DNA from: Gammaproteobacteria bacterium
GTDB taxonomy: Bacteria > Pseudomonadota > Gammaproteobacteria > GCA-001735895
Length of the DNA stretch: 58,550 nucleotides
NCBI GenBank assembly: GCA_050298595.1
Contig: JBNKUM010000026.1
Location: 1 to 58,550 of the forward strand
Reading direction: 5' to 3'
Both the position numbers and the translations under genes were made by a program. Shown one piece after another: positions 2,692 to 23,263 of this stretch (positions within the stretch are counted from its first letter, which is position 1; each line of letters starts with the position of its first letter). The notes beneath the pieces were generated by a model. The model was not told the DNA's origin. It ran no database searches and saw only the letters and a list, made by a program, of their open reading frames with translations.

Positions 2692-3360
2692 ATGAAAGCT
2701 ATGTTATCGATCTGTTTATTTGTTATTTCTACCTTCGTTTGGGCCGGTGATAGCCATGCATCCAGCGCCGTAAAGGGCATAGTACTTGAGACCATGGATG
2801 TACCGGGTTATACCTACCTGCGTCTCAAGACTAAAGACGGCGAGACCTGGGCGGCAGTTACGGCGGCTCAGGTTAAGAAAGATGCCGAAGTCACCATTAT
2901 AAACCCGTCAGTCATGAGTAACTTCGAGAGCAAGACGCTGAACAGGACTTTTCCGACAATTCTGTTCGGTACATTGGCCACCAGTGCAGCGGCAAAAGCG
3001 CCGGTTGCATCAACCACGCCTACCAATATTGGAGATACTACCGTCACCAGGGCCAGTGGTGCGATCGCGAAAACAGTGGTTGAAATCATTACTCATAGCG
3101 CTGAGCTTAAGGATAAACCTGTCCTGGTGCGCGGAAAAGTCGTCAAGTTCAATTCAGCAATTATGGGTAAGAATTGGCTTCATCTACGCGATGGCACGGG
3201 TTCAGAGGCAGAAAAAACAAACGATATTCTGGTGACAACTGAGGATGAAACCAATGTGGGAGATATTGTGGTGGTAAAAGGCACTATTCACACTGACAAG
3301 GATTTTGGCTCTGGCTATACCTATAAAGTGATCATAGAAGAAGCCACATTGCAAAAATAA
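2692..3360 (+). CDS. Exported NrfJ-like / OB-fold protein
   Basis: Signal peptide MKAMLSICLFVISTFVWA; ETMDVPGYTYLRL...ETWAAV N-domain; C-terminal OB fold (VRGKVVKFNSAIMGKNWLHLRDG...DKDFGSGYTY). Start moved to ATG 2692 (GGGAG upstream). Confidence 0.7.
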   Translation: MKAMLSICLFVISTFVWAGDSHASSAVKGIVLETMDVPGYTYLRLKTKDGETWAAVTAAQVKKDAEVTIINPSVMSNFESKTLNRTFPTILFGTLATSAAAKAPVASTTPTNIGDTTVTRASGAIAKTVVEIITHSAELKDKPVLVRGKVVKFNSAIMGKNWLHLRDGTGSEAEKTNDILVTTEDETNVGDIVVVKGTIHTDKDFGSGYTYKVIIEEATLQK

Positions 3361-3629
3361 AAGAATAGTTAAGCCAATCTATTCAACCAGCGAGTCGCCA
3401 GCCTTTGAGCTCCGGTTTGCTGGCATCACCTAAACACGACAGGCTCCTGGTCTCTGATATTTACCTTTAACGTTAACCTGAGCTCTTAAATGGTGGCTAA
3501 GGTCCCATTTATTTTTCAGCGTCGACCAGGTCGCTTGTATGGGTTCGAACACTATAGATTCCTCCACATTTTTGTTGCTGAAATATGTCGTGCTAGTACT
3601 GGGAGGTAGTCCGCCCATGCGTCTCAAAT

Positions 3630-4282
3630 CAAACCGGAATAAGAAATATTTATAGCAATAATCTTTTATAGGTCTTCCTTGTACGCGGGTGTTTTCGGAA
3701 TAGGGTTTAGTGATTAAACTTTTAAATAACCCATGTTAATCATCGAGCCATTGTTTATCACCTGTGAATATTGAGGAATATAGACAATGGTAGCTTCTTA
3801 ACTAATTGTAATTAAAGGGAAAAATATAAAATGAATACCTCTCGGTTTAAAACTAATTTATCGTGTAAATAACCGCTTAGAGAAATGTTTCGTGTGAATA
3901 TATAATTATTCAAATATCCAATAATCAGTATTCATTAAATCAATCTATTGGTGATAAATTTTATAATACCTTACTTTTTATGCAGGAAATAGAAGTAAAG
4001 AGTACATGTATAAATATTTCCAATTAGCCGTTACAACTATAACACTAGGGGCACAAATGTCGGTAATGTAACCATGATGGATTTGGTTTCTGGATAACTT
4101 CTTAATGGAAGACCAGGAATTGATCGATCACTATTTGATTCGATTGTTCCAGGAATCTGAAAGGATTGAAAACTTGTGAATTGGGATCGTGAATCGTTTA
4201 GGAATTGATCATTTTTAATCGGAAGTTGATTGGTAATGGACTAAAAATGCCTCATTTTAGTACAAAAGATGAGGAAGGAGTT
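3630..4282 (+). promoter_or_regulatory. AT-rich upstream regulatory region of the cytochrome operon
   Basis: Long AT-rich gap before a ~19 kb co-oriented gene run; direct repeat aggaattgatc at 4115 and 4200; RBS GAGGAAGGAG at 4271-4280. Confidence 0.4.
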
Positions 4283-4966
4283 ATGAAGCAGCTATTGAGT
4301 AAACACATTAAGCAAAAAGGGTTAATACTGAAACTGGGTTTTGCATCAATTAGTCTGGCAGTTTCTGGTACCACATTTGGCGGTACCATTGTGGGTTCAC
4401 CACATGATATGTCGGCGCAAGGTTGGTCTGGAGGCGAAATCTGTAAAGTTTGTCATACCCCGCATAACGCGCAAGATGGTGTTGTGCCTTTGTGGAACCA
4501 TACTGTCACAACCGCAGTGCACACGATGTATACCAGCCCGTCATTCGACGGATTAGCAACAAGAGCTGACGGTCCCACAGGGGCTAGTAAGCTGTGTTTA
4601 TCATGTCATGATGGGACGGTGGCTCCTGATTCGTTTGGAGGCGCAGTTGGTAATGCTGCGCTTCAAAACAGCAGGGCCATTTTTGGCACTGACTTGACCA
4701 ATGATCACCCCATCTCGTTCACCTATGATGATGCCCTCGCCATTGCTGATGGCGCATTGGCTATGCCATCAGCAGCGACAATGATCAATGTGGGTGAAGG
4801 TACTGATGCGGATAGTGGCACTCTTGCGGAAATGCTGGTACCAACCGGCGAGCTTCAGTGCAATTCATGTCATGATGTGCATAACAAGAAAACGATTACA
4901 GGCACTCCGTTGTTGCGAATAAGCAATGCAGATAGCGCCCTGTGTTTGACTTGTCACACCAAGTAG
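4283..4966 (+). CDS. OmcE-like tetraheme c-type cytochrome (putative nanowire subunit)
   Basis: Four CxxCH motifs in the OmcE order: SPHDMS..EICKVCHTPHNAQ..PLWN..LCLSCHDG..GTDLTNDHPISF..QCNSCHDVH..LLR..SALCLTCHTK at the C-terminus; signal-peptide-like N-terminus; strong RBS. Confidence 0.85.
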   Translation: MKQLLSKHIKQKGLILKLGFASISLAVSGTTFGGTIVGSPHDMSAQGWSGGEICKVCHTPHNAQDGVVPLWNHTVTTAVHTMYTSPSFDGLATRADGPTGASKLCLSCHDGTVAPDSFGGAVGNAALQNSRAIFGTDLTNDHPISFTYDDALAIADGALAMPSAATMINVGEGTDADSGTLAEMLVPTGELQCNSCHDVHNKKTITGTPLLRISNADSALCLTCHTK

Positions 4967-4979
4967 AAAATCCAGGCAG

Positions 4980-5015
4980 TCCCTCGTAGGAGCCAATCTG
5001 CTTCTGCGGGGGGGA
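4980..5015 (+). terminator. Stem-loop after the tetraheme gene (terminator or mRNA-stabilising hairpin)
   Basis: tccctcgtaggagc-caatct-gcttctgcgggggga with G-U pairs; no immediate U tract. Confidence 0.5.
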
Positions 5016-5115
5016 TCTAGTTCACGGAGTAGCAATGGCGTACAGATGCTTTTCCATTCTGCGCGAATGGGTTTTCTGCTTTCATTTATTTTCTCCCTTT
5101 TGAAGTAACTGATTT

Positions 5116-6228
5116 ATGACGATAATAAAAAACCGCAACTGGCAATTTGTTACTGACCTGTTTGCTTTGAGCACATTAATGATTCTGTTAGTCGGATGTG
5201 CGACAACACCAAAGGAGGAAGATGTTGGATTTATATTCTACCCACCGCTACCAAATCCACCGTTAATACAATATTTGCATACATTTTCTAGCCAAAACGA
5301 TGTGGGTGAAGAAATGGGCGGTTTCGCAAAATTTATAATCGGCGACGAGGAGGGCATGACGACTATCAACAAGCCATATGGAACGGCCATCCATGATGGA
5401 AAGATCTATGTCGTCGATACCAGAGGCGGCGGTTATGCAATATTTGATGTAAAGCAACAGGTATTTAGCTTTGTGATCGGGTCGGGAGGCGGGGTTCTCA
5501 GAAAGCCTATCAATATCGCCATAGATAAGGCAGGTAATAAATATATTACTGATACAGGGCGTGATCAGATCGTTGTGTTTGATGTTAACGACGAGTATCT
5601 GCGTGCATATGGGGTTGATGGTGAATTCAAGCCATCGGATGTTGCGTTATCCGGCAACCAGTTATTCGTATCAGACCTGCTGCATCACAACATTCATGTG
5701 CTCGACAAACAAAGCGGCAGGGAAATAACAACAATCTCATCTGTCGGTTCTGATATAGACCAACTCTTCCACCCGACCAATATCGATATCAAGGGTGATT
5801 ATCTCTACGTGGCAGACACCTCAAATGCTCGTATCCAGAAATTTACTCTGACTGGTGAGTACGTTGCAAGTATCGGAAAAATGGGGGTAAACCTGGGCGA
5901 ATTCGCAAGACCAAAAGGAGTGGCAGTTGATAATGAAAACCGAATTTATGTTGTAGATGCTGCATTTGAAAACATTCAGATCTTCAACGATGAAGGAAAA
6001 CTATTGTTATTTTTTGGGGCACCGGGGGTGGAGAAGGATAACATTAATTTACCAACGACAGTGGCAGTTGACTATGACAATGTGCAATATTTTCAGCGCT
6101 ATGCGGCACCGAAATTTCATCTTGAGTATGTGATTCTGGTGGCCAGCCAGTTTGGTAGTAACAAGGTAAATGCCTACGGATTTGGAAAGATGGAGGGAGT
6201 GGATTATTCATCACTGGGGAGAAACTGA
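5116..6228 (+). CDS. NHL-repeat six-bladed beta-propeller lipoprotein
   Basis: Lipobox LLVGC; FYPPLPNPPLIQYL; repeated P.G+A+D..G.+YV.D (e.g. FARPKGVAVDNENRIYVVDAAFENIQIF). Confidence 0.85.
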   Translation: MTIIKNRNWQFVTDLFALSTLMILLVGCATTPKEEDVGFIFYPPLPNPPLIQYLHTFSSQNDVGEEMGGFAKFIIGDEEGMTTINKPYGTAIHDGKIYVVDTRGGGYAIFDVKQQVFSFVIGSGGGVLRKPINIAIDKAGNKYITDTGRDQIVVFDVNDEYLRAYGVDGEFKPSDVALSGNQLFVSDLLHHNIHVLDKQSGREITTISSVGSDIDQLFHPTNIDIKGDYLYVADTSNARIQKFTLTGEYVASIGKMGVNLGEFARPKGVAVDNENRIYVVDAAFENIQIFNDEGKLLLFFGAPGVEKDNINLPTTVAVDYDNVQYFQRYAAPKFHLEYVILVASQFGSNKVNAYGFGKMEGVDYSSLGRN

Positions 6229-6367
6229 ATTGAAAGAAAAATCGGATATAAAAGCAGCCGTTTAGATGATTGGTTCTAGCTATATGCAAACGATGATATT
6301 GATAACGGTCAATTCTCAAATGGCATCAGTTCCATGGGGGAATCACAGAGATAGTGTAAAGGTGCTA

Positions 6368-8383
6368 ATGGAAAACAAATTTGGTGCATACCAGATATCT
6401 GAAATTGGTTGTGTTTGGATGGTCATTGTTTTTTTTATCATTGTTCCGTCTAAAAGTCATTGTGCAACCCTTGATGCATTTAAATTAACGGGTGTAGAGG
6501 GTTCAATCAGGCTGGGATATTCATTTACCGAAACAGATCTTACTCAGGTCGGAGGTACTGATATCAAAGAAAAGAGAAGTGGCATGGAGCAGGAATTCAA
6601 TATCAACGCGCAAGCTTACGTGTTTCATCCGAATCTATTAGAAATGGAACTGGGTGCGGGCTTTCTGGCTGGCCAGGATAAACATGAAAGCAACTCTGGC
6701 ACCTATGATAGCGAGAGTGAGTATTATGATTTCAGCGGGCGCTTTAATTTTTTGAAGAACAAACCGTATCCAGTAAGTTTATATTATGTCAAAAGTAGTC
6801 CGAAGCAGGCAGTAGGTGTGGCAGATAGTCTAAATATTAAATCAGAATTATATGGGCTGTCATCGTATCTTAGGTCACCTCTAGTAAACAGCCCTGTCAC
6901 ATTAAGATTTGATCATACCCAGAGTAAGGGGGAAAGCTCGTTATCGGTTGTCGATGACAGCAGTGATTCCCTGTTTTTGGGTATAGCTACAAACATAGGA
7001 AATGTTGGTAACGGGAGTATTGGCGTGAATAAAATATCGAAAACGTCGGGCAGTGGCAGTCATAACCTGCCTTTGCAGGTGTCCACAAATGACACTGAGT
7101 CTATAGATTGGAATGGTAAAGTCGCATTAGGTAGCGAGCGAAACCTCAGCATAAGCAATCACCTTCTTCTAAGTAGCAGCGAGCAAAATGTCGCTCCCAG
7201 TAGAGATCGGCTTACATTTTATAACCATATAGACTGGAAAATTGATGATGCCACTGAGACTTACAATACTTACAATTTTTCAAAAAATGAATATGACAAG
7301 GTGGAGTCTAAAAACCAGAATCTTGTTATCGGCTCAGTCCATCGATATGGAGAATGGATGACTTTTAGTGCATCTGTTGATACAGAAAATGAGGTAAATG
7401 ACGGCTTTAAAAGATCAAGTTCCAGTTTGAATGGTAGCGCTATAGCACAAATACAGGTAACTGACCGCTGGGCATCTTCACTTGGTTATTCAGCATTTTT
7501 CAGATCCAATAGTCAGTCAACTAATGAGTTGACTATCAGCGCTTTTGATGAAGCTCATACGTTTAGCGGTATCTCTTCCATTACACTGACACATGAATAT
7601 GTTATCTCCGGTAGTGTAAGCGTAAGCAATGAAACTCACTCACAGGATTATGTAGAAAATATTGACTATATTGTCATTACCGTGGGCTCGGAGACCAGAC
7701 TGGAGAGATTGATCTCTGGAAATATTGCTGATGGACAGACCGTATTAATCAGCTATGAATATGAAGCAGGTGGTACGTTTGACTTTGATGAAATTTATCA
7801 ATCTTTTAATATCCGCTATTCTTTAGACCGGCGCTATAATTTTTCGCTATTTTACTCGACCAATAAACAGATATACCAATCAGGTATACCAGTGCACTCA
7901 ATGAAATCTGTGCAGAATTACCGCGTGGGTATGGATGCACAGGTTCCTATTAATAAAACTGCAGATTTTGGTTGGAGGTTGGAATTCGAGAGACGTAATG
8001 AAGACCTAAATCCATTTACTCGCAGCTCTTTTGATCTTAATCTAAATTCATCGTTACCGTTTAACGCGGCATTTTTGAGCGTGAATACAGGGTATCAACA
8101 GGTAGACAATGAATTATCACCCAATGACATTCGTGAAACCTATTTATCGACCAATGTTTCTGCCAGGACTAGTCTGGGGGGGAGAGCAAGTTTTGAGTGG
8201 ATCTATAAAATAGACAAGGGGAGAGATACACCAAAGAACTCAAGCGACGCCAAGTTACGTTACGAATGGAAGAGAGGGCGCCTGGATTTTTCATTATCCG
8301 CCAGGCATACGAAAGAAGAGCAAGGTATTGCATCACGCGAAAACTCAATCGTCGAAGCAGCTCTAAGAAGGGATTTTAGATGA
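6368..8383 (+). CDS. Outer-membrane beta-barrel (porin-cytochrome conduit or export channel candidate)
   Basis: Signal-peptide-like segment, long alternating amphipathic beta strands rich in Y/F/S/N, C-terminal ..LRRDFR. Start moved to ATG 6368. Confidence 0.7.
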   Translation: MENKFGAYQISEIGCVWMVIVFFIIVPSKSHCATLDAFKLTGVEGSIRLGYSFTETDLTQVGGTDIKEKRSGMEQEFNINAQAYVFHPNLLEMELGAGFLAGQDKHESNSGTYDSESEYYDFSGRFNFLKNKPYPVSLYYVKSSPKQAVGVADSLNIKSELYGLSSYLRSPLVNSPVTLRFDHTQSKGESSLSVVDDSSDSLFLGIATNIGNVGNGSIGVNKISKTSGSGSHNLPLQVSTNDTESIDWNGKVALGSERNLSISNHLLLSSSEQNVAPSRDRLTFYNHIDWKIDDATETYNTYNFSKNEYDKVESKNQNLVIGSVHRYGEWMTFSASVDTENEVNDGFKRSSSSLNGSAIAQIQVTDRWASSLGYSAFFRSNSQSTNELTISAFDEAHTFSGISSITLTHEYVISGSVSVSNETHSQDYVENIDYIVITVGSETRLERLISGNIADGQTVLISYEYEAGGTFDFDEIYQSFNIRYSLDRRYNFSLFYSTNKQIYQSGIPVHSMKSVQNYRVGMDAQVPINKTADFGWRLEFERRNEDLNPFTRSSFDLNLNSSLPFNAAFLSVNTGYQQVDNELSPNDIRETYLSTNVSARTSLGGRASFEWIYKIDKGRDTPKNSSDAKLRYEWKRGRLDFSLSARHTKEEQGIASRENSIVEAALRRDFR

Positions 8384-9432
8384 GCCAGAGAAAAATTAAT
8401 TCTCTGTTGACTTGTTATATGCTGTTTGCTGTTTCGATACTACTTTGTTCCTGTGCAGGAAGCACTCAACCCAATGAAATTAACAATAAAAATGTCAGCA
8501 TAATATGGCCGCCGCCACCATCTAAACCTCGTATAGAGTATTTGGGCACGGTATCAAGCCCACAGGATCTAGAGATAAAAAGCGGATTTATGGGATTTCT
8601 AAAGGATCTGGCGTTTGGTGAGGAGGATAACGGTATGGTCCTCCCGATGGCGGCGATTTCGAATCAGTTTGGACAACTGTTTGTGGCAGATAGCGGAAAA
8701 AAAATAATACACAGGTTTGACAAGCTAAACGAAAAATATACCCCGATAAAAAGAGAGGGTGATAAGAAGTTTGCTTCACCGGTAGCTATGGCAACTGATA
8801 AAGCCGGAAATGTTTACGTAGTGGATTCTGATCTCGCAAGGGTTTTTGTGGTAGCGGTTAATGCAGACTACGCCGGTCAATTAGCGCTGGATGGCAACTT
8901 TATCAGACCCACTGGAATCGCTATAGATAAAGATAGTGGACAGATCTATGTTGTAGATACCGGAATACATGCTGTATACATCTTTAATAAGGATAATTCT
9001 TTAGTAAAAAAGTTCGGTACTCGCGGCACAGGAGATGGCGAATTTAATTTCCCTACCTATATATGGCAAAACCTTGAAGGCAGGTATCTCGTCACCGACA
9101 GTCTAAATTTTCGTATTCAAATATTTGATCGCTATGGTCGATACCTTTCGCAGTTTGGCAGTGCTGGAAATGCCACCGGTGACCTCGCCAGACCTAAAGG
9201 TGTAGCAGAAGATAGCCATGGGCATGTGTATGTCACAGATTCTCTATTCCATAATATACAGGTATTCGACGAATCTGGAGCATTCCTGTTGGATTTTGGT
9301 GTGCAAGGAACCAGTCCTGGTGAATTCTGGCTTCCTGTGGGGATTTTTATTAGTCAGGACGATAAGATATATGTCGCGGACTCTTATAATCATCGTATTC
9401 AGATGTTTCGATATATTGGTAAAGACTTATGA
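8380..9432 (+). CDS. NHL-repeat beta-propeller lipoprotein
   Basis: Lipobox LLCSC; WPPPPSKPRIEYL; GEFNFPT, DLARPKGVAEDSHGHVYVTDS and GEFWLPVGI repeats; ATGA overlaps at both ends. Confidence 0.85.
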   Translation: MSQRKINSLLTCYMLFAVSILLCSCAGSTQPNEINNKNVSIIWPPPPSKPRIEYLGTVSSPQDLEIKSGFMGFLKDLAFGEEDNGMVLPMAAISNQFGQLFVADSGKKIIHRFDKLNEKYTPIKREGDKKFASPVAMATDKAGNVYVVDSDLARVFVVAVNADYAGQLALDGNFIRPTGIAIDKDSGQIYVVDTGIHAVYIFNKDNSLVKKFGTRGTGDGEFNFPTYIWQNLEGRYLVTDSLNFRIQIFDRYGRYLSQFGSAGNATGDLARPKGVAEDSHGHVYVTDSLFHNIQVFDESGAFLLDFGVQGTSPGEFWLPVGIFISQDDKIYVADSYNHRIQMFRYIGKDL

Positions 9433-11123
9433 ATACCAGATGGCAAATATTTTATCTGATAATTGTATTTTTATTTACATTGTCTGATGCATATTCGGGT
9501 ATAGCGGCTAGCAAGCATAATTTGTCGGTCAGTGGCAGTGGCCCCATAAGAGCTTCGGGTGAGAGTGATATATGTATCTTTTGCCACTTACCGCATAATT
9601 TCAATCCAAGACAATCGATATGGAATCATGAAAAGACCGGAGGCTATTACACCCCCTATTCAAGTTCGACGGCAATATCATTTATCGGACAGCCTAATGG
9701 CACATCTGTTCTATGTCTGAGCTGTCATGATGGGACGATTGCGCTGGGCAATGTTATTAGCGAAGAAATGACGATTCCAATGCTGGGAGGCATAACTACT
9801 ATGCCTCAGGGGCCATCGGTTCTCGGTACAGATCTATCTGATGATCATCCAATTTCCTTCGCCTATACCTCAAGCATTGCAAACAGGAGGGATGATCTGG
9901 TTCATCCGTCAGAACTGACGGCTGCGGTTAAACTCGACAGGATGGGGCGTATGCAATGTACTTCCTGCCACGATCCACATAACGATAATAATGGAAAATT
10001 TCTCACGATGTCTAATCGTGCCGGATCACTTTGCCTGACTTGCCACAGAAATCTTAAAAACTGGATTCAGTCCTCGCATAGTACATCAGTTTCCAGGTGG
10101 GCAGGACAAGGAGTAAATCCATGGCCCGATAGTCAATGGACATCTGTGGCAGACAATGCCTGTGGAAATTGTCATAAAACGCATAACGCTGGCAAAGCGG
10201 AACGATTACTGAATTATTCTCAGGAAGAAGAGAACTGTCTGGTATGTCATAACGGTCAGCTTGCTAAGACCGATATATCAAATACATTAAGAAAGTTTTC
10301 TATACATCCGGTTCAGAAAACAACAGGGGTGCATGATCCTAAAGAAGGGGCCATTGTATCTTCGCGTCATGTAGAGTGCAGTGATTGCCATAATCCACAT
10401 GCTGTAAGTAACAGCAGTGGTTTACTGAGTGGTTCGCTAGTCGGTGTTCGAGGTGTTTCCATCGACGGGGTGGAGCTCTCATCGATTAATCATGAGTATG
10501 AATTATGTTTTCGCTGTCATAGTGATGGCTACAATAAGCCTCCATCCAGAACGCCAAGGCAAATTGAACAACTCAATGTGCGCGAGGAGTTTTTTTCAGG
10601 GAATCCTTCGTTCCACCCGATAGCAGCTGTGGGGAAAAATCAGAATGTACCAAGCCTGATTTCGCCGTATAACATAAACAGCATCATGGACTGTGGTGAT
10701 TGCCATGATAGTGACGATAGTGTGGCATCAGGTGGCAGCGGTGCGAATGGGCCGCATGGTTCTCGCTATGTCCCCATATTACAGAAAAGATATGAGACCC
10801 TGGACAATACTGTGGAAAGCTCAGCCACTTATGCGCTTTGTTATAAGTGTCATGAGCGGAGTAGTATTCTCAGTGATCAAAGCTTTAAGTCGCATCGGCT
10901 ACATATCGTAGATGAAAAAACCAGCTGTAACACATGTCATGATCCCCATGGCGTGAGTTATACACAGGGTAACTCGACGAATAACAGCAGTCTGATTAAT
11001 TTCGATATTACGATAGTAAAAGAGAATGCTATGAAAGATTTACGTTACGAATCGACAGGTCGATTTAGCGGTGTATGTTACTTAAGTTGCCATGGAAGTG
11101 ATCATTCTCCCAAAGCGTATTAA
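9429..11123 (+). CDS. Multiheme c-type cytochrome, 11 CxxCH + 1 CxxxCH, with an N-terminal OmcE-like module
   Basis: Manual motif count; signal peptide; SKHNLS..ICIFCHLPH..LCLSCHDG..GTDLSDDHPISF..CTSCHDPH..LCLTCH. Confidence 0.9.
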   Translation: MNTRWQIFYLIIVFLFTLSDAYSGIAASKHNLSVSGSGPIRASGESDICIFCHLPHNFNPRQSIWNHEKTGGYYTPYSSSTAISFIGQPNGTSVLCLSCHDGTIALGNVISEEMTIPMLGGITTMPQGPSVLGTDLSDDHPISFAYTSSIANRRDDLVHPSELTAAVKLDRMGRMQCTSCHDPHNDNNGKFLTMSNRAGSLCLTCHRNLKNWIQSSHSTSVSRWAGQGVNPWPDSQWTSVADNACGNCHKTHNAGKAERLLNYSQEEENCLVCHNGQLAKTDISNTLRKFSIHPVQKTTGVHDPKEGAIVSSRHVECSDCHNPHAVSNSSGLLSGSLVGVRGVSIDGVELSSINHEYELCFRCHSDGYNKPPSRTPRQIEQLNVREEFFSGNPSFHPIAAVGKNQNVPSLISPYNINSIMDCGDCHDSDDSVASGGSGANGPHGSRYVPILQKRYETLDNTVESSATYALCYKCHERSSILSDQSFKSHRLHIVDEKTSCNTCHDPHGVSYTQGNSTNNSSLINFDITIVKENAMKDLRYESTGRFSGVCYLSCHGSDHSPKAY

Positions 11124-11266
11124 TAATATATTAGGACACAATAGGTAGTATGAATATTTGCCAGCAAAGGTTGTTTGGGATGAATTATATAGTGACGATT
11201 TTATGAATTAGATTGTGGAAAATGCGAATCGAAAACTGAGTAATGTGGCTATGAAAAGGCCGATGA

Positions 11267-12331
11267 ATGCAAAACGATAATATGAACGTATGTGGATTAA
11301 ATACAAAAATAAAAAAAATATTAATATTCTTTGCATTTGGTATATCGATCACAATAAAAATACTTTGTTCATCATCGTACGCAGCAGCAACAAAAATGAG
11401 TGGAGATTTGCAGCAAGAGAAAAGCAGGGCAGAGAGTGAGTATGAGAATTTTTACTCCCTCGTAGGAGGTTTGGAAAATAGGGGTCGGGTTAATCCTCAT
11501 TGGGATAAGACTCGGTGTAATTCCTGTCATGAAAACGGAAAAACAATTCAGGATGCTGAGATGAGTATTAAGAATAAAGAGGAGTTATGTTACAGCTGTC
11601 ATGCTGAAGATGTGGTTCATAAATATATACATCCAACTGGAATATCGGTACCAGAAGAGTTCGAGAAACGTATTGAAAAAAATTGGCCTGAAAAATTGAA
11701 TCTTAGGAGAGAGGGGGAAATAACATGCTATACCTGCCATGATGTGCTGGATCAATGCCTTTCTGGTCGATCATACATGTCCAGAGCTAATCCAAAATTT
11801 CTAAAAGGTGCGCCATATGCTAAGCGTTATGATATTTGTTATAAGTGTCATGATTCATCAAAATATAGAAAGATGAATTCACATGAGCAGATAGATGAGA
11901 GCGGGAATCTGAAGCTGAATAAATGTCGTTTATGCCATATTGTTAAAGACGAAGGGTCAGTTAAAAAAGGTATCAGGCGTGATCTGAGTAAATATCCATT
12001 ACTGAAAAAACTGGAAAATGATCGCAATCTACTTTGTTTGCGTTGCCACAAAAAAATTGATCATCCAACAAGTGCGTTCAAATTCACATCAAGCAACAAG
12101 TATAGGCATTTCATAAAAATCACTGAAGAAAAAAAGGCAACACTAGAGCGGATGATTAAAAAAACAGGCATCGTTTTACCGCTGGAACCGGATACTGACA
12201 GAATTAACTGTGCTACTTGCCATCAGCCACATCAGCCGGGAGTATTTGAGCAAGGCGCACAGAGTAGGGACATACTTTCCCCAAAGAGAATGAGGGTAGC
12301 TAATATTTGTGATCAATGTCATGAAAAATAA
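11267..12331 (+). CDS. Octaheme c-type cytochrome
   Basis: Eight CxxCH (CNSCH, CYSCH, CYTCH, CYKCH, CRLCH, CLRCH, CATCH, CDQCH); N-terminal signal-like segment; start uncertain. Confidence 0.85.
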   Translation: MQNDNMNVCGLNTKIKKILIFFAFGISITIKILCSSSYAAATKMSGDLQQEKSRAESEYENFYSLVGGLENRGRVNPHWDKTRCNSCHENGKTIQDAEMSIKNKEELCYSCHAEDVVHKYIHPTGISVPEEFEKRIEKNWPEKLNLRREGEITCYTCHDVLDQCLSGRSYMSRANPKFLKGAPYAKRYDICYKCHDSSKYRKMNSHEQIDESGNLKLNKCRLCHIVKDEGSVKKGIRRDLSKYPLLKKLENDRNLLCLRCHKKIDHPTSAFKFTSSNKYRHFIKITEEKKATLERMIKKTGIVLPLEPDTDRINCATCHQPHQPGVFEQGAQSRDILSPKRMRVANICDQCHEK

Positions 12332-12360
12332 TACTGGCGTATAGGCGTGTATAGAAAGGT

Positions 12361-13503
12361 ATGAATAACTCAAAAACGACTATCACAATTAAAAAAATAA
12401 CGGGTATATCTTTGTTGCTGATTCTTTCTGTCTACTATTTAGAAGGATACACAGCAGATTTTGCGGATGATGAAGCCTGTTTGATGTGCCACAAATACAT
12501 TCGTATGGCACGCATTACGGAAGAGGGGGTTTTTCGTTCATATTATGTGCCTCCGAGCACATTTGCCAAGACGGTTCACAGAAACGTCCCATGTAGAGAT
12601 TGTCATAGCTATATTACGCAACTTCCCCATGAAAAAGTAGAGGAGGGAGTAAAGTGTGACAAGGAGTGCCACTCTAAGAATAACCCTGCAACCGGAAAAC
12701 CATTTAGTCATAAGGCTATATCCGATCTTTACTCTGAGAGTGTTCATGCAAGAGTCAAGAATGCAACCGGCCTTGATGCTGATAAGCCCTATTGTATAAC
12801 CTGTCATACAAACCCTGTCTATAACCCTTCAGAAGAGGTCCCTCCAAAGGAGATACTGGATCGCTGTGCGCTGTGTCATGAGAAGAGGGAGTTCGTTAAA
12901 CAGTGGTATTTTCACACCAGTAGAAGAGTTCTGGATGTTAAACGATCTGGTCAGGAAATTGTAGAAATTTGTACTCGCTGTCATGCAAACCAGGAATTAA
13001 TAGAGCGACACAAAAAAGCACATGATGCTGCAGGAGACCCGATGGGTGATAAGTTTCCAATAGCTGCAACGTCTTATAAGAATAGCTTTCATGGAAAGGT
13101 GACAAAGTACGGTATGGTCGGTGCAGCTACTTGCCTGGATTGTCATGCAGACAGTGATCAATATTACAAGAGTGTACATAAAATACTGCCATCAAGGAAT
13201 CCTGATTCTCCAATAAGTAAAGAAAATAGATTAAATACATGCCAGAAGTGCCATACAGGTGCCGATCAGAAATTTGATGTGGTCGATCCACATCCTTCGT
13301 TTGAAGAAGAACGTAACCCAATCTTACATGCGGGTGAAAAGATCTATAGCGTATTTGGAAATATCATAGTCTTTTGTTTGATTGGATTATCCTTGTTTGA
13401 GACTTTTGGAAGGCGTCGAGATGGAGCCGGATGGCGGCTTCGTATGGGTTCAACATGGTGGAATAAAAGTCGCAGAAAAAGGGATAGAAATATACCGAAG
13501 TAA
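12361..13503 (+). CDS. CbcA-like membrane-anchored multiheme cytochrome c (7 CxxCH + CxxxCH), copy 1
   Basis: Signal peptide, heme motifs, C-terminal TM helix VFGNIIVFCLIGLSLF and a basic tail; followed by a cytochrome b gene. Confidence 0.8.
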   Translation: MNNSKTTITIKKITGISLLLILSVYYLEGYTADFADDEACLMCHKYIRMARITEEGVFRSYYVPPSTFAKTVHRNVPCRDCHSYITQLPHEKVEEGVKCDKECHSKNNPATGKPFSHKAISDLYSESVHARVKNATGLDADKPYCITCHTNPVYNPSEEVPPKEILDRCALCHEKREFVKQWYFHTSRRVLDVKRSGQEIVEICTRCHANQELIERHKKAHDAAGDPMGDKFPIAATSYKNSFHGKVTKYGMVGAATCLDCHADSDQYYKSVHKILPSRNPDSPISKENRLNTCQKCHTGADQKFDVVDPHPSFEEERNPILHAGEKIYSVFGNIIVFCLIGLSLFETFGRRRDGAGWRLRMGSTWWNKSRRKRDRNIPK

Positions 13504-13574
13504 ATAAGAATTTAACTCAAACAACCAGGCAAAGATTTTAAATGTTGCCTGGCAATAAGAAGGTAGGAAGCTAA

Positions 13575-14528: not shown

Positions 14529-14719
14529 ATTCCTTTGGTCAAAAAAAAATATCTTTGGCGTCAAGTTCTGTCTTATGCATCTCTACTTTTTGTGTTGAGC
14601 TGGACAATTTATTTTATCTATGTGTACGTAATGATTCTGTTTTGATGCAAGGCAATGCGAGTCTTTGTTATTACACCGAAAAGAAGTACAAATATTAAAG
14701 GGGTTGGAGTAGTTATTTT

Positions 14720-15751
14720 ATGCATGAAGTAACATCTTACGGAAATATTATTATTGCAACAGCAGTGGTGGTGATCGTTCTGTTTATGATCATGCTTGTT
14801 GTTGTAATTGATCACAAGGCGAGACTTAAAGAAAAAAAACGTGATGATATCTTTCATATATCAGGAGTAAAACGAAATCACCCTATCTGGTCGTATCTTA
14901 TTGGGTCATTTTTATTGATCGTAATATTAGGTGTGGCCATCCAGCTGATAGCTACCGTTTTGAATTATATTCCTGTGAACGAAAATAATAAACCTTCTGA
15001 GCTACTTGCTTCGCTAAAAAAGAAAAGCGTATTAGAAGATGCGAGGCATTTTCATAATCCAGCAAATACACTGGCTTTGGAAGGAAAAAAGAGTGTTTGT
15101 TATTACTGCCATGGTGACTTTCCCCACTTTCAGAAACGTATGATTCGTACCTTACTTAACATGCATACTCAATTCATTGGATGTATGACCTGTCATGCTA
15201 ATCCGGATAAGGCGGATGAAAACTTGATAACCCTAAAGTGGTTAAACTTTTCAGGGATAGAGGTTGAAGGCGGGCATTTCGGTGTTGATTATGATAAGGA
15301 TAGTGGTTACCTCGTCGATACCGATGACTTTTTCTCAAAGATAGTACCTTATCTAAACAATGATGGTAATGAACAATTGCTTGAGATTACTGAAGATGAT
15401 CCCATTGCGATAGATTTCGTCAAGGTACAGTCAACCTTACAGGGACAGAATAGAGAAGCGGTTAAAAAGAGTCTTCATCGTATGGTGCGCCCAAAAGGAC
15501 GGTTCTGTACGCGTTGTCACACCGAAAGAGCGAAAAGTTTCGTTCCATTTGAACAGCTGGGTTTCTCGGAAGAGAGAATTTACGACCTTACCAATTTGAA
15601 CATTATCGGGTTGGTAGAGAAGTATAAAGAGTTCTATATGCCGAATTTAATGAACAGGGAGATTGAGCCAATAAAAATAAATTTAAATGGTATTCCGGCT
15701 GAGAAAGAAAGGATATATCAAACTTTGCCTCAGCTTAAAAATGATGGCTAA
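14720..15751 (+). CDS. Membrane-anchored triheme cytochrome c, copy 1
   Basis: Two N-terminal TM helices; CYYCH, CMTCH, CTRCH; paralog of 18824-19735. Confidence 0.8.
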   Translation: MHEVTSYGNIIIATAVVVIVLFMIMLVVVIDHKARLKEKKRDDIFHISGVKRNHPIWSYLIGSFLLIVILGVAIQLIATVLNYIPVNENNKPSELLASLKKKSVLEDARHFHNPANTLALEGKKSVCYYCHGDFPHFQKRMIRTLLNMHTQFIGCMTCHANPDKADENLITLKWLNFSGIEVEGGHFGVDYDKDSGYLVDTDDFFSKIVPYLNNDGNEQLLEITEDDPIAIDFVKVQSTLQGQNREAVKKSLHRMVRPKGRFCTRCHTERAKSFVPFEQLGFSEERIYDLTNLNIIGLVEKYKEFYMPNLMNREIEPIKINLNGIPAEKERIYQTLPQLKNDG

Positions 15752-15906
15752 CCGCAGAGCAGAAAAACTGCTAAAGCTATAATGCTTCCTTATTCTCAGA
15801 GTTGGTTATATCAAGTCGACTAGTATAGTTAGTTTAATCAAATTATTAAGTATAGAAAGGATCTTATGGAGAGGATATATATGAAAACAAAGGAAATTAT
15901 CGTGCG

Positions 15907-16821
15907 ATGAATTTCCGTTTAGATCAGGTCGAAAATATTAATGCTACAGGCGAAAGCAGGTCAAGTGTACGCAAGACGTATTACGCGCTAATACTTTCAA
16001 TATTTCCCGGTTTGGGTCAGCACTACTCGGGTCATCTTATTCGAGGCATCTCATTATTTATCTTTCTGATAATTATTTCGTGGGTTGCGGCAATTATTTT
16101 TATGTATACGACATCTACGATCATCAGTGTGATCCTGCTGTCTATTCCTGTAGTTGTGTATGTATTAATAGGAATAGATGCTGTTTATTGTTCACTGAAC
16201 CAGAAAGAAATATACGTATTAAAGTGGTATAACAAAAATTGGATTTACATAGCAGTCATCATTGTTTTATTTTCCACAATAAATCCATTGATGGATACTC
16301 TGATAGGGAAACACATTGTTCGAGCATACCTTGTCTATACGAATAGTATGGCACCAACTGTATTAAAACATGATGTCATTGTTATAAACAAACTATCTGA
16401 ACCAGAAAGGAATGATATCGTATTAATAGAAATGAGCCAGGAGAATACAAAAGGTTCGATGTCAACAGTTATTGATAAGCAGATTTTAAGAAGAATTATT
16501 GCTATTCAAGGGGATGAACTCGAAATTCTAGGAAAGAAAATATATATCAATGGGGAAATATTCGAAAGTTCATTTGCCAGTTACGGTGAACAGCTTAGCC
16601 CCAACTATTATGTAACAAATGAATATCACTATGGCCCGATAGATGTACCCGAAAATACCTTCTTTGTATTGTCTGACGCAAGGCAATACAGTTTTGATAG
16701 TCGAGTGTTTGGGTTTGTTCCAAGAGCGCAAATCACAGGAATAGCGACAAAGATATTCTGGTCGTGGAATCGCGACGAAGGCCATTTTATATGGGGAAGA
16801 ACTGCAAAGAAAATAAATTGA
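15907..16821 (+). CDS. Signal peptidase I (S26) homologue with extra N-terminal TM helices and an atypical active site
   Basis: FPGLGQHY TM region; box B TNSMAPT; box D ILRRIIAIQGD where KR is expected; box E LSDARQYSFDSRVFG. Confidence 0.85.
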   Translation: MNFRLDQVENINATGESRSSVRKTYYALILSIFPGLGQHYSGHLIRGISLFIFLIIISWVAAIIFMYTTSTIISVILLSIPVVVYVLIGIDAVYCSLNQKEIYVLKWYNKNWIYIAVIIVLFSTINPLMDTLIGKHIVRAYLVYTNSMAPTVLKHDVIVINKLSEPERNDIVLIEMSQENTKGSMSTVIDKQILRRIIAIQGDELEILGKKIYINGEIFESSFASYGEQLSPNYYVTNEYHYGPIDVPENTFFVLSDARQYSFDSRVFGFVPRAQITGIATKIFWSWNRDEGHFIWGRTAKKIN

Positions 16822-16932
16822 TTAATTCTGTATGTATGCGGAAATGTTGATCAACTTCCAGTAGCAATGATGTGACAGAAATATTGACTATTTATACCAA
16901 TTTAAGAGATCCTGGAAAGGTAATTCATATCG

Positions 16933-17991: not shown

Positions 17992-18012
17992 ATCCCGAGA
18001 AAGAGCTAAGGC

Positions 18013-18823: not shown

Positions 18824-19735
18824 ATGTTACATGTCATAAGAAAAATAATCAGGAATCTATATGTTATCGTCCTGATGATATTTACCCTCTGGTATGGTTA
18901 TATTCTGTATCCGATTATATTTGAACATTCTGCTGATCAGTCTAGTGCCGAAGTCGAGGATGATGACGTGGATGTATTTTTTGGTCAGGGAACAACCGAA
19001 GAAGAGAAGGAGTTTCTAAAATCACTAAAACAACAGCAAAATACCGAAACAACCGATCTCGGCTATATGGTTGTAGAAGAGCAATATGTGAAAGGACATT
19101 TCCATCATGTGGGGATGAAAGTTGAAACCGATTCATTCAGTGTATGTATCAGATGCCATGGTGCCGTCCCTCATGATATGGCAAAGTCAATTCGTGCTTT
19201 TCTGAATATGCACGCATTTTACATGGCCTGTGAAACCTGTCATGTACGTCCGATTGATGGTGAACCCAATATGGAATTTCGTTGGTATGATCAGGCAACG
19301 GGAATAACCATAGAAAATCCTGCGGGGTTGAATGCGCAGGATGAATCCATGTATGGAAACTACTCAGCAAAAATAGCACCGGGAAGAATGGATGAAAATG
19401 GGAAATTCAAATTAATCAATGGGACTAAAGAGCTTGAATTTGCAAAAAGATATCAAAGTGATGAGTCTAGATTGAATGATACTCAGAAATCAAAAATGAA
19501 AAAGATAATTCACAGGAAAGTCAATGAACAACCACTGCTTTGCGATGGGTGTCATACCACTGAAAATCAGCCATATTTACCATTTGAGCTATTGGGGTAT
19601 CCCAAACGACGACTGTACGAACTTACCAGTACAGAGGTTGTAGGTATGATTAAAAAATATCAACAATTTTATATTCCCAATATATTACATGGTGGTGAAA
19701 GCAGAAAAGAGAGTAATAAAGATCAGAACTTATGA
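18824..19735 (+). CDS. Membrane-anchored triheme cytochrome c, copy 2
   Basis: N-terminal TM helix; CIRCH, CETCH, CDGCH; HFHH..RAFLNMH..KYQQFYIPN shared with copy 1. Confidence 0.8.
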   Translation: MLHVIRKIIRNLYVIVLMIFTLWYGYILYPIIFEHSADQSSAEVEDDDVDVFFGQGTTEEEKEFLKSLKQQQNTETTDLGYMVVEEQYVKGHFHHVGMKVETDSFSVCIRCHGAVPHDMAKSIRAFLNMHAFYMACETCHVRPIDGEPNMEFRWYDQATGITIENPAGLNAQDESMYGNYSAKIAPGRMDENGKFKLINGTKELEFAKRYQSDESRLNDTQKSKMKKIIHRKVNEQPLLCDGCHTTENQPYLPFELLGYPKRRLYELTSTEVVGMIKKYQQFYIPNILHGGESRKESNKDQNL

Positions 19736-20712: not shown

Positions 20713-20713
20713 A

Positions 20714-23263
20714 ATGACTAACAAACGACGTATTTCAATATTACTGAGCTTGTTGTTAAAGCTTACTTTTGTTGTTTCGATTTTATTTTTACTAACGCCA
20801 AATGCACAGGCAGCACGCGTGGTAGAAGAAAAGCGAGAGTGCGCTACCTGCCATATCGCATGGATAGCCGATTTCAAAAAAAAAGAGGTCACAACTCTGG
20901 TTCCTTATAATCCACGTCCAAAGGTTGCAACAGGACGTCAGGATGTCGTCAGTACGGAGGCGATGTGTTTCTCCTGCCATGATGGATACGTCATGGATTC
21001 ACGTTTTCTATGGCAGGATGGAGGACATACCCATCCTGTAGGTGTGATCCCCTCAGATAGGGTCGACATACCTAAGGATGAAGACAAAACAATCTTCCCA
21101 CTCAACGATGATGGCAAAGTGTACTGTGGAACCTGTCACTCGGCGCACGGCGTCGAATGGGGAAGTAAACTGTCGCCAGTCTTCCTGCGTGCAGAGAATA
21201 TCAATTCATCCCTTTGTATGACCTGTCATGTTGATAGAAAAGATCAGCACGCTAATCATCCTCTGAACCGTAAAGTAAAAAATAATAACAAGAAGCTGGA
21301 ACAGATGGGTTCAAAATTTAAAGACACAGATCAAGTTATTTGCCAGAGTTGTCATAAGGTTCATGGAGCCAAAGAAGAAAAGCTATTAGTGGAGAAGAAT
21401 GAAAAATCGCAGTTGTGTGAGATTTGTCATCAGGATATTAAAAATGTAGATACTACGGGCTCTGGCCAACACTATAGTCACCCAGTTGACGTTATTCCAA
21501 AGGAAGTAAAAGTACCCAGTATATTTACTGAATCCGGATCAAAATTCGGACCTGACAAAGAGGTTATCTGTCAATCCTGCCATACGCCACATTTTGCACC
21601 ACCGGAAAATAAATTGTTGGTTCTGGATAGCGAACACCTTAAAGAGGGGATTTGTGTCAACTGCCACGAGAAGCAACGCAGCTTGCTTAACACGGGGCAT
21701 AACCTGCTCAGTGGCGATACGAAAGTAATGTCAGATTCTGAATTACCCAGTAGCAATTTAGGGGTCTGCGGTGTTTGCCATAACATCCACTCAGGAAAGG
21801 GGCCAAAGATGTGGGCGCGCGAATTACAGCCCGGTGGAGACAGAGTGGCTTCATTATGCCTCAGTTGCCACAGCGACGGTGCACCTGCTGAAAAATTCAC
21901 AGTTGGTGAATATAGCCATCCGGTGGGGAAATCGCTCAGTTCGGCAATCGACCCAGGTGTTCTCCCGCTCTTCACCTCGTCCGGGGTAAAAACCCATTCC
22001 ACCAAATACGGACGGGTTACCTGCCCAACATGCCATGATGTGCATGGCTCCGTCAGTCACATTAATCATTCATCATCAGCAGGAAGCAAACAGCCTGGAG
22101 GTGGTAAATATTTACGTAAAGGAGAGGATAATCTTTTGTTGCTGTGTGAGACATGCCATGCTGATAAATGGTCTATAGCCGAAACAAAACATGATTTGGA
22201 TATTAAAAAGGGTGACCCCATGCCTCTGGGTATCTGCGGCAACTGTCATCAGGTTCACAACGGTAATGGGCCACGTATGTGGGCAAGAGATGATGGTCTT
22301 AAAAAGAATGATTATGGTGCGCTGTGTAAAAGTTGTCATAAAAAAGGTGGCCTGGCAGAAAAGAAAACAACGGGATCCCATTCACATCCAATCGGTGTTT
22401 CAATTGAAAAAGCAGGTATAGATGTAACTCCCGAGGGATGGGTTTCCATCGAAGGGGGAGAAAAAACCACCAATGCAGCTGTGCTGCCATTGTATGATGA
22501 AAAAGAGGGTGTATCGCATAATAAAAATGGCGCTGTTTCCTGTCCTACTTGCCATGATCCTCATCGATGGACAAGCAAAAAGACAGATAAAAAAATGAGC
22601 GGCAAAAAGACGGATGAGGGTGATGCGACAAACAGTTTTTTACGTATTCCCACAGCACCTGATGGTGAATTGTGCGTCACCTGCCATACAGCAAAAGCCC
22701 CGATTCGTGCTACGGATCATGATCTTTCCGTCACTGTGCCAAAAGCGAAGAATGCCTTAGGTGAAGAACTGCATCAATCGGGTATATGTGGTCAATGCCA
22801 CGCCATCCACAATGCTGTGCAGGACCTTGCGCTATGGGGGCGACTGCCTGGACAGGCAGACAATGCTCCGGAAATGCTCTGTCGAAGTTGCCATGATGCA
22901 GGTGAAATCGCAGAGGCAAAGGTACCTAAGAAGGCATCTCATCCTGGTTACGTAATGGCCTGGGACGGAAGTCTGCGAGATGTTGATAAAAAGGGAATAA
23001 CCCATCTACCGGTCTTCTCCGAAAGTGGCCGTCAGGCTCTGACGGGGTATATTAGCTGCCCGACCTGTCATAATGTGCATCAATGGCGTCCCGATACAAA
23101 CGAGGCAGGAAGTGGTAAAAACGAGGAAGGAGACGTCTTTAGCAGCTTTCTTCGAACAGATTCTTCTGAAGGAATATTATGTGCGGATTGTCACGACCTG
23201 GATTCGATTTTTCGCTATAAATATTTCCACGGTATCGATTTCAAGAGCCAAAAAGAGAATTGA
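20714..23263 (+). CDS. 20-heme c-type cytochrome with tandem modules
   Basis: Twenty CxxCH by manual count; signal peptide ..PNAQA; repeated HP(V/I)G..C..CH..H..LR..LC..CH units. Confidence 0.9.
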   Translation: MTNKRRISILLSLLLKLTFVVSILFLLTPNAQAARVVEEKRECATCHIAWIADFKKKEVTTLVPYNPRPKVATGRQDVVSTEAMCFSCHDGYVMDSRFLWQDGGHTHPVGVIPSDRVDIPKDEDKTIFPLNDDGKVYCGTCHSAHGVEWGSKLSPVFLRAENINSSLCMTCHVDRKDQHANHPLNRKVKNNNKKLEQMGSKFKDTDQVICQSCHKVHGAKEEKLLVEKNEKSQLCEICHQDIKNVDTTGSGQHYSHPVDVIPKEVKVPSIFTESGSKFGPDKEVICQSCHTPHFAPPENKLLVLDSEHLKEGICVNCHEKQRSLLNTGHNLLSGDTKVMSDSELPSSNLGVCGVCHNIHSGKGPKMWARELQPGGDRVASLCLSCHSDGAPAEKFTVGEYSHPVGKSLSSAIDPGVLPLFTSSGVKTHSTKYGRVTCPTCHDVHGSVSHINHSSSAGSKQPGGGKYLRKGEDNLLLLCETCHADKWSIAETKHDLDIKKGDPMPLGICGNCHQVHNGNGPRMWARDDGLKKNDYGALCKSCHKKGGLAEKKTTGSHSHPIGVSIEKAGIDVTPEGWVSIEGGEKTTNAAVLPLYDEKEGVSHNKNGAVSCPTCHDPHRWTSKKTDKKMSGKKTDEGDATNSFLRIPTAPDGELCVTCHTAKAPIRATDHDLSVTVPKAKNALGEELHQSGICGQCHAIHNAVQDLALWGRLPGQADNAPEMLCRSCHDAGEIAEAKVPKKASHPGYVMAWDGSLRDVDKKGITHLPVFSESGRQALTGYISCPTCHNVHQWRPDTNEAGSGKNEEGDVFSSFLRTDSSEGILCADCHDLDSIFRYKYFHGIDFKSQKEN

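Follow-up and report, generated by a model that had tools for sequence, protein, structure and literature searches.

Does one locus of a gammaproteobacterial genome encode an entire route for electrons between the quinone pool and the outside of the cell, and is that route of a new kind? The question is raised by positions 2692 to 23263 of contig JBNKUM010000026.1 (assembly GCA_050298595.1), of which a stretch of 58,550 nucleotides, hereafter the window, was analyzed. A previous inspection of the letters alone, here called the sequence-only reading, had described there a co-oriented, cytochrome-rich cluster and had taken it for a self-contained extracellular electron-transfer system with an architecture different from those already characterized. 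The observation as such was confirmed, and the interpretation was supported in part. Parts for every compartment are encoded (two inner-membrane modules of b- and c-type cytochromes, secreted multihaem cytochromes, a large barrel with lipoprotein propellers, and a homologue of the nanowire cytochrome OmcE), and the host is gammaproteobacterial. The claim of a different architecture fails for the outer half, because this set of OmcE, propellers, barrel and cytochromes has already been described. We conclude that the locus is a richer version of a known machine and not a new kind, and that positions 2514-23740 are probably an acquired island, whose genes specify an OmcE-type cytochrome system of the outer surface with a connection to the quinone pool.

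Between 2692 and 23263 the list of open reading frames (ORFs) holds 16 ORFs, all on the plus strand; an earlier count of 15 genes disagrees with its own parts list, which sums to 16. Motif counting per ORF placed haem c motifs on eight of them, with 4, 11, 8, 7, 3, 6, 3 and 20 CxxCH (62 in total) and four non-canonical motifs (three CX3CH and one CX4CH), exactly as had been tallied from the letters. Searches against Pfam and NCBIfam also bore out the three NHL propellers, the S26 homologue and the two cytochromes b, the latter just under cut-off, and assigned only generic multihaem domains to the cytochromes of the locus. Adjacent genes overlap by 4 bases at 8380/8383, 9429/9432 and 19732/19735. 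The arrangement is far beyond chance, and its gene order was found again in dozens of genomes. The genes are the following (aa, amino acids; AF2, AlphaFold2).

2692..3360 (+): secreted 222-aa protein, family unassigned; signal-peptide-like N-terminus
4283..4966 (+): OmcE homologue, tetrahaem, candidate nanowire subunit; PDB match and conserved ligands
5116..6228 (+): NHL beta-propeller, probable lipoprotein (LLVGC); PF01436 E 1.7e-17, lipobox judged by eye
6266..8383 (+): large outer-membrane beta-barrel, 705 aa; AF2 model, Foldseek and VIA
8380..9432 (+): NHL beta-propeller, probable lipoprotein; PF01436 E 4.7e-27, 4-base overlaps with the barrel gene and the next gene
9429..11123 (+): 12-haem cytochrome, 11 CxxCH and one CX3CH; motif count and OmcE profile
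11267..12331 (+): 8-haem secreted cytochrome, probably periplasmic; 8 CxxCH, signal peptide
12361..13503 (+): CbcA-like 8-haem cytochrome of module 1; 7 CxxCH and one CX3CH, signal peptide, C-terminal membrane helix
13575..14528 (+): CbcB-like cytochrome b of module 1; PF01292-like
14720..15751 (+): membrane-anchored trihaem cytochrome of module 1; 3 CxxCH, hydrophobic residues 10-28 and 60-78
15907..16821 (+): S26 signal-peptidase homologue with a polytopic N-terminal extension; TIGR02227 and PF10502
16933..17991 (+): CbcA-like 8-haem cytochrome of module 2; 6 CxxCH, one CX3CH and one CX4CH, C-terminal membrane helix
18013..18816 (+): CbcB-like cytochrome b of module 2; PF01292-like
18824..19735 (+): membrane-anchored trihaem cytochrome of module 2; 3 CxxCH, N-terminal hydrophobic segment
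19732..20712 (+): third NHL beta-propeller, signal peptide without lipobox; PF01436 E 5.8e-31
20714..23263 (+): 20-haem secreted cytochrome; 20 CxxCH

The 4-haem protein matched OmcE of G. sulfurreducens (PDB 7tfs) at E 2.4e-24 and a 218-residue entry of 16 chains (9yuq), which we take to be the D. soudanensis OmcE bundle, at E 1.9e-24. Its ORF is open from a TTG at 4205, and the signal-peptide-like start is the ATG at 4283. An alignment with 44 four-haem relatives taken from related loci showed 98-100% conservation of the four CxxCH motifs and of His67, His87, His168 and His226 (ORF numbering) among the 45 OmcE-type sequences, and the window protein has all eight conserved haem-ligand positions. 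The barrel nature of the 705-aa protein had been set beforehand as a point on which the sequence-only reading could fall. Its AF2 model (20-sequence alignment; predicted local distance difference test, pLDDT, 82.7) is all-beta with about 28-30 long strands and matches only large outer-membrane barrels. The protein has no Pfam or NCBIfam family. The best Foldseek match was MtrB (6r2q_B, E 7.6e-10, TMq 0.41), followed by TonB-dependent receptors and LptD; VIA scores tied at Z 15-18 among receptors, MtrB and pilus ushers, with MtrB at Z 16.3 giving the longest alignment (450 residues). Because the structural scores tie among MtrB, receptors, LptD and ushers, the model points to a large outer-membrane barrel of no solved family. 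A domain is inserted at residues ~423-500 of the barrel, where 14 of the 41 listed invariant columns fall (residues 429-503) and to which distant matches from Planctomycetota are limited. While the barrel otherwise evolves fast, this segment shows the best conservation and is a candidate plug or outer loop; a phage tail-tube model matched it weakly, below threshold (E 4.3e-5; 23.1 bits, cut-off 60). The two NHL proteins flanking the barrel have Cys-containing, lipobox-like N-termini, as judged by eye.

These outer genes are the gene content of a published cluster. According to the accessible text of Petersen et al. (mBio 2026, PMC13712944), the smallest omcE cluster of Desulfuromonadia contains, besides OmcE and a large barrel, a pair of beta-propeller lipoproteins and a pair of multihaem cytochromes, and OmcE homologues accompanied by a barrel and a propeller lipoprotein occur predominantly in Thermodesulfobacteriota and Pseudomonadota. 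The window has each of these elements, including the tetrahaem ligands, and the family of its 12-haem cytochrome also occurs in Geobacteraceae. That the cluster might already be described was among the outcomes the sequence-only reading had itself named as fatal, and for the core this is the case. The window differs from the Desulfuromonadia cluster in its sulfur-oxidizing gammaproteobacterial host, in the lack of glycosylation genes, in its location on an insertion-like island, and in the addition of two co-oriented Cbc-like modules, an S26 homologue, a third NHL propeller and a 20-haem cytochrome. A gammaproteobacterial counterpart is the uet cluster of Ca. Tenderia electrophaga and other Tenderiales, for which the text accessible to us (10.1101/2022.05.06.490989) lists a tetrahaem (UetA), a 28-strand barrel (UetC), NHL proteins (UetH and UetI) and a cytochrome with 11 CxxCH (UetJ). 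Compared by this description, the window shares the tetrahaem, the barrel, two NHL proteins and the 11-CxxCH cytochrome. However, uet as described has a peptidyl-prolyl isomerase, three c7 trihaems and a cupredoxin and no adjacent cytochrome b module, whereas the Pfam and NCBIfam scan found no such isomerase, c7 trihaem or cupredoxin in the window, which has Cbc-like modules instead. The likeness to MtrCAB and MtoAB is one of general logic, that of a cytochrome passing a large barrel, together with MtrB as the best Foldseek match of the barrel. No Mtr-type gene had been noticed in the letters, and none was found above curated cut-offs in the window or in the genome: the best genome-wide scores for the MtrB_PioB (PF11854) and DmsE/MtrA (TIGR03508) families were 19.8 bits (cut-off 23) and 48.4 bits (cut-off 192.2). 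Two other candidate relatives were set aside, namely the extracellular electron-transfer cluster of Methylobacter (PMC13322032), which is Mtr-like and hence unrelated, and PCC3 of iron oxidizers (PMC5566968), which has far larger cytochromes and a membrane protein with five transmembrane helices. A peat preprint (10.64898/2026.05.27.727921) contains a single mention of OmcE-like cytochromes.

The outer gene set is widespread. A pattern scan based on the barrel alignment, with one genome per species, yielded 56 loci, the ORFs of which were compared with the window proteins by BLASTP. The order OmcE, NHL, barrel, NHL, 12-haem cytochrome recurs throughout the scanned loci, and the carriers are labelled as Gammaproteobacteria, Rhodoferax and other Burkholderiales, Phycisphaerae/Planctomycetota, and Binatia. 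One locus, L018, bears the label Rhodoferax ferrireducens, which suggests that the core cluster has a culturable carrier. Across the sampled phyla, the barrel-adjacent 4-haem OmcE homologue is 33-56% identical to that of the window.

The 12-haem cytochrome at the end of this outer set has an OmcE-like head. Its residues ~6-207 align with the entire OmcE homologue (35% identity, E 1e-27), and a hidden Markov model (HMM) of the OmcE family finds one complete unit at residues 6-207 (independent E-value, iE, 1.1e-48). The profile of the 12-haem family matches the whole chain of 7tfs at E 2e-48, which is stronger than the match of the 4-haem protein itself. The architecture is that of an OmcE-like unit fused to an 8-haem tail. 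Within 44 sequences of the family, the N-terminal His, the four CxxCH and the three further His of the OmcE-like unit are invariant, and the motif pattern shows no variation. Of the 55 related loci L004-L058, 43 have a full-length orthologue with 11 CxxCH, and most of the remaining 12 break off before reaching the gene. Searching 1.84 billion representatives with the profile gave 2199 clusters at E <= 1e-30, the best 150 of which all lie below 1e-99. Two of the ten representatives looked up bore a name, one being from Geotalea sp. SG265 (Geobacteraceae; 33% identity over the full length, E 1e-81). In the accessible discussion of PMC13712944, the way in which wires attach to the cell is treated as an open question and an OmcE-like 'anchor' cytochrome is asked for; the only anchor candidate offered there lies outside the operon and is deemed less likely, since anchor and filament subunits typically co-evolve. 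Because it starts with a complete OmcE-like unit, the 12-haem protein is a candidate for the base or anchor of the wire. As a separate observation, 11 of 61 genomes of another genus of the same family (g4) match the 12-haem profile at E <= 1e-40. Eight of these matches cover only the first ~350 profile positions, inside frames of 700-860 aa (e.g., G063:C43:27334-28617), and the remainder are two short frames and one mid-profile match. To judge from these alignments, they look like another, longer cytochrome family with an OmcE-like head.

The inner half of the locus consists of two paralogous three-gene modules, each with an 8-haem c-type cytochrome, a cytochrome b and a trihaem c-type cytochrome. 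In both modules the 8-haem protein combines a signal peptide with a C-terminal hydrophobic segment (residues 328-346 in module 1 and 316-334 in module 2), and the cytochrome b of each module has four hydrophobic, His-bearing stretches, as judged by eye. For the cytochrome b of module 1, the nearest Atlas cluster is a PF01292/DUF4405 protein (score 0.95), and similarity to formate dehydrogenase gamma was found below cut-off (E 2e-8). The modules are 29% (8-haem), 34% (cytochrome b) and 31% (trihaem) identical to each other. Their orthologues in metagenome-assembled genomes (MAGs) of Ca. Thiodiazotropha are 59-83% identical to those of the window, and since the paralogues reach only 29-34%, the duplication is old. 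In layout the modules resemble CbcBA (GSU0593/GSU0594), which the accessible text of 10.1101/2021.04.15.440034 describes as a periplasmic multihaem c-type cytochrome with a C-terminal helix and a dihaem cytochrome b with four transmembrane helices: a C-terminally anchored multihaem c subunit is followed by a formate-dehydrogenase-gamma-like b subunit with four such helices. They differ from CbcBA in having eight rather than seven haem motifs in the c subunit, in carrying an anchored trihaem cytochrome as a third subunit, in being present in two copies here and three in Thiodiazotropha MAGs, and in that neither a BccR-type regulator nor a sigma-54 site was found at the locus. The island holds no regulator gene by ORF list and Pfam. 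A scan for promoters and terminators gave no more sites than shuffled sequence, and an Rfam scan of positions 1-26000 gave zero matches.

Two further secreted cytochromes may bridge the periplasm. The 8-haem protein at 11267-12331 shows sub-threshold similarity to the DmsE family (47.7 bits against a cut-off of 192.2). The 20-haem protein has six stretches of doubled CxxCH (Pfam, E 5.8e-39), and its orthologues in Thiodiazotropha MAGs are 56-60% identical; we regard it as a candidate periplasm-spanning wire. The idea that it might be a chain of whole OmcE units was rejected, as its repeated matches to the OmcE profile are all confined to the terminal dihaem part; the OmcE HMM gives the same kind of repeated match, to the last dihaem part only, on the 8-haem protein. 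The third NHL propeller is probably soluble in the periplasm.

The S26 homologue that stands between the two modules carries a well-supported S26 domain (TIGR02227, 110.5 bits against a cut-off of 47; PF10502, E 2.6e-29). The catalytic residues of signal peptidase I are a Ser-Lys dyad. Here the nucleophile Ser is retained in 'NSMAPT' (the 'SMxPT' box), but 'LRRI' aligns opposite the 'aKRl' or 'vKRi' of solved signal peptidases, which places an Arg at the position of the catalytic Lys, so the dyad is incomplete. The same Arg is present in the window protein and its three orthologues (4/4). Besides the window and its identical copy L003, the homologue is confined to 3 of 55 loci, all of the multi-module Thiodiazotropha type; because of this restriction to long loci, its distribution argues that it is not a general assembly factor of OmcE. 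SipA and LepA of Streptococcus pyogenes are signal-peptidase-like pilus assembly proteins with a chaperone role, and SipW of B. subtilis is named alongside them. SipA (4n31) and LepA (4k8w) are among the PDB sequence matches of the window protein, which, like them and SipW, is an S26-fold protein sitting within an operon for a fibre or surface structure. Unlike them, it keeps the Ser and changes only the Lys to Arg, has a long polytopic N-terminal part, and accompanies the second Cbc-like module rather than OmcE generally. The first gene of the locus (2692-3360) had been labelled NrfJ-like, a label for which we found no support: in Pfam, NCBIfam and PDB searches the protein matched no family or structure, the best family signal being an insignificant OB-fold (E 0.0094). 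Homologues that are 33-45% identical adjoin OmcE clusters in four other loci (L010, L025, L027 and L075).

How far, then, does the full combination extend? The long form was found in three Ca. Thiodiazotropha MAG loci (L004, L005 and L007), two of them from a lucinid clam, and the stretches covered run from the outer genes through module 1 and the S26 homologue into the first part of module 2. Two Thiodiazotropha loci examined in full have three Cbc-like modules each, the third NHL propeller and the 20-haem protein, with differing flanks and no ndh beside the cluster. Five further gammaproteobacterial loci (L008, L015, L020, L023 and L031) have a form with a single module; four of these also carry the third NHL propeller and a 9-15-haem protein, and the contig of L020 ends after the NHL gene. 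Literature searches, together with passages from two Thiodiazotropha papers, found no published description of the long form in the text covered. The core set of OmcE, propellers, barrel and cytochromes is already in print and of a known kind; what we did not find in print is the variant in which sulfur-oxidizing Gammaproteobacteria join it to a 20-haem cytochrome, an S26 homologue with the Lys-to-Arg change and two or three Cbc-like modules of three subunits. Among these loci, L007 (G044:C12) has a five-CxxCH OmcE-like gene (218 aa) upstream of the four-haem one, and its product resembles the 5-haem 'leaky' OmcE-like class mentioned in the accessible text of PMC13712944.

The host and the borders of the locus bear on how it came to be there. 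The ndh gene that flanks it is 95-97% identical to those of three genomes of the same genus, which confirms a gammaproteobacterial rather than Geobacterales host; the best named relatives of this gene are from Ca. Thiodiazotropha (63-66%). With dsrA, RuBisCO and two ccoN genes (cbb3 oxidases) in its genome, the host is a sulfur-oxidizing chemolithoautotroph. The island (2514-23740, ~21 kb) has a GC content of 0.413 as compared with 0.473 in the right flank, and it is bracketed by an imperfect direct repeat of 275 bp (84% DNA identity, 230/275) that corresponds to the 3' end of ndh:

2240..2513 (-): left repeat arm, a degenerate copy of the ndh 3' end; 60% amino acid match to Ndh residues 356-435, 3 stop codons
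23741..24013 (-): right repeat arm, inside the 3' end of the intact ndh (23769-25079); DNA comparison

The distribution is patchy, with a full-length 12-haem orthologue in 4 of 14 genomes of the genus, in none of 65 other genomes of the family and in 8 of 300 genomes drawn evenly from the class. The three congeners that have it (G002, G007 and G013) carry a uet-like variant that is 36-39% identical to the window's, in the order NHL, OmcE, two trihaems, barrel, NHL, 11-haem; they thereby share the gene order of uet, small trihaem genes included. The Thiodiazotropha 12-haem orthologues are 61-67% identical to that of the window. Because the variant of its congeners is so much more divergent, the window's copy is a xenologue closest to the Thiodiazotropha type. 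The block is probably transferable. To the left of the ndh remnant lies a gene for a flavodoxin-fold protein resembling NAD(P)H:quinone oxidoreductases (1323-1901, minus strand; PF02525, E 1.6e-38). As this gene is also present on L003, the transferred block may start near 1032 rather than at 2514.

From gene content, OmcE homology, barrel fold, membrane anchors, conservation and patchy distribution we infer the following localizations and contacts. The two inner-membrane modules would exchange electrons with quinone or quinol, and the secreted 8-haem and 20-haem cytochromes, with the soluble NHL propeller, would carry electrons across the periplasm. The barrel of 28-30 strands, flanked by two NHL lipoproteins, would form the passage through the outer membrane. 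The 12-haem cytochrome would place its 8-haem tail through or against the barrel and present its OmcE-like head outside, and the tetrahaem OmcE homologue would polymerize on that head. Several points weigh against an acquired, quinone-linked wire system. The PF01292 scores of the two cytochromes b (28.0 bits at 13575-14528 and 26.2 at 18013-18816) fall short of the cut-off of 30.1, and signal peptides judged by eye are the basis for localizing the 8-, 12- and 20-haem proteins. Modelling of the 12-haem protein by AF2 without haem gave a poor result (pLDDT 54.7), which was not used. The ORF list and Pfam show no integrase or other mobility gene in the island, and the congeners have no clean empty site, as the neighbors of their ndh differ on both sides. 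Unlike Geobacter cbcBA, the locus gave a single, mismatched sigma-54 match at no promoter position, where 4.4 were expected by chance. OmcE-like tetrahaems are also widespread, and not all of them need polymerize (PMC13712944, accessible text).

It seems very improbable to us that the island, or the whole contig, is a binning or assembly artefact foreign to this gammaproteobacterial genome. The island does have a lower GC content than the rest of the contig, and a 22.6-kb contig (the L003 locus) filed under a Chitinispirillaceae MAG repeats window positions ~1055-18380 at 99.7% identity. On the other hand, the island is physically joined on its 58.5-kb contig to the congener-type ndh (95-97% identical) and to a type VI secretion locus. 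The protein collection also lists a contig of 65,057 bases for each of four proteins (Ndh, ClpV-like, TssC-like and 20-haem), and every island protein has gammaproteobacterial closest relatives in the BLASTP comparison of scanned loci. Given the linkage to ndh and type VI secretion genes and the agreement of the 65-kb contig, the short island-only Chitinispirillaceae contig is more likely the mis-binned one. We attach hardly any probability at all to a set of exclusively periplasmic cytochromes feeding a reductase of soluble substrates. Sub-threshold similarities to models of NrfB/NrfH and octahaem tetrathionate reductase would fit such a function, but no catalytic subunit or family was found above cut-off in Pfam or NCBIfam, and the large outer-membrane barrel, the lipoprotein propellers and the OmcE homologue are conserved as a set. 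A porin-cytochrome conduit that carries no wire deserves much more attention, although we judge it rather unlikely: here the OmcE homologue would dock on the 12-haem protein as a surface cytochrome, either monomeric or oligomeric, with no micrometre filament. The accessible text of PMC13712944 agrees with this in so far as OmcE-like tetrahaem genes are called 'widely distributed', loops differ strongly among the homologues, and the authors filtered for those 'potentially capable' of assembly; moreover, in the literature covered, and in the text of it accessible to us, filaments have been demonstrated only in Desulfuromonadia and archaea. Yet all four distal His, the N-terminal one included, are present together with the barrel and propeller context that is used as a nanowire criterion, and the conservation of the barrel-adjacent OmcE homologue at 33-56% identity across phyla also speaks for a wire.

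The sequence does not reveal in which direction the electrons flow, as the sequence-only reading had already stated. We lean slightly towards outward flow to minerals, partners or electrodes, which agrees with the action of OmcE and CbcBA in Geobacter, and regard inward uptake as a minority possibility. In the latter case the same machine would bring electrons from Fe(II) or FeS minerals, cathodes or partner cells into the periplasm, from where they would pass to the cbb3 oxidases or, through reversed Cbc-like modules, to the quinone pool for autotrophy. Inward flow fits because the host is autotrophic, a sulfur oxidizer with RuBisCO, dsrA and two cbb3 oxidases, and because a precedent exists in uet, which in the accessible text of 10.1101/2022.05.06.490989 is proposed for electron uptake and differs in expression with electrode potential. 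The uet-like gene order of three congeners and the proposal that CbcBA runs in reverse in Seep-SRB2 (PMC10553843, accessible text) point the same way. However, the parts of PMC12307469 and 10.1101/2021.04.15.440034 accessible to us characterize OmcE and CbcBA in outward metal reduction, uptake to an oxidase would not require two or three quinone modules, and no sequence feature fixes the direction.

The unusual parts of the locus can tentatively be joined into one scheme, which we offer as a doubtful possibility. The 12-haem protein would be the missing base of OmcE wires, its head starting or anchoring the polymer by the His-to-haem contact that also joins one subunit to the next and its 8-haem tail threading the barrel; in the long gammaproteobacterial form, the divergence among the two or three Cbc-like modules would adapt the wire to different redox windows; and the Lys-to-Arg S26 pseudo-peptidase would serve as an assembly chaperone. 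Sulfur-oxidizing, symbiont-type bacteria would then have a two-way electrical connection to minerals or other cells. Cytochrome nanowires have been studied almost only in metal reducers of the Geobacter type, and here the outer machine is part of a transferable block with quinone modules of its own, located in a chemolithoautotrophic sulfur oxidizer and with close copies in MAGs of lucinid-clam symbionts (Ca. Thiodiazotropha). If the system is active, these bacteria would have a sink or source of electrons besides O2 or nitrate and sulfide, with consequences for symbiont physiology and for the cycling of sulfur and iron in sediments. The 12-haem protein with its OmcE head is a concrete candidate for the mounting of the wire on the cell, which the accessible text of PMC13712944 leaves as a question.

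Some neighboring and genome-wide features were also recorded. The host genome (G000) has four other very large frames (C91 19692-24779, C5 9909-12644, C74 6031-8154 and C103 39470-45913), and these frames, of 2101, 1181, 1100 and 890 aa, show many sub-threshold matches to decahaem families; the island is therefore not the sole multihaem system of the genome. Much of the remaining contig (25196-47948 and beyond) is filled by the type VI secretion locus, with genes for a PP2C phosphatase, TagF, TssM/IcmF, DotU-OmpA, the TssK-like VasE, an FHA protein, ImpA, the VipA/VipB sheath and Hcp.

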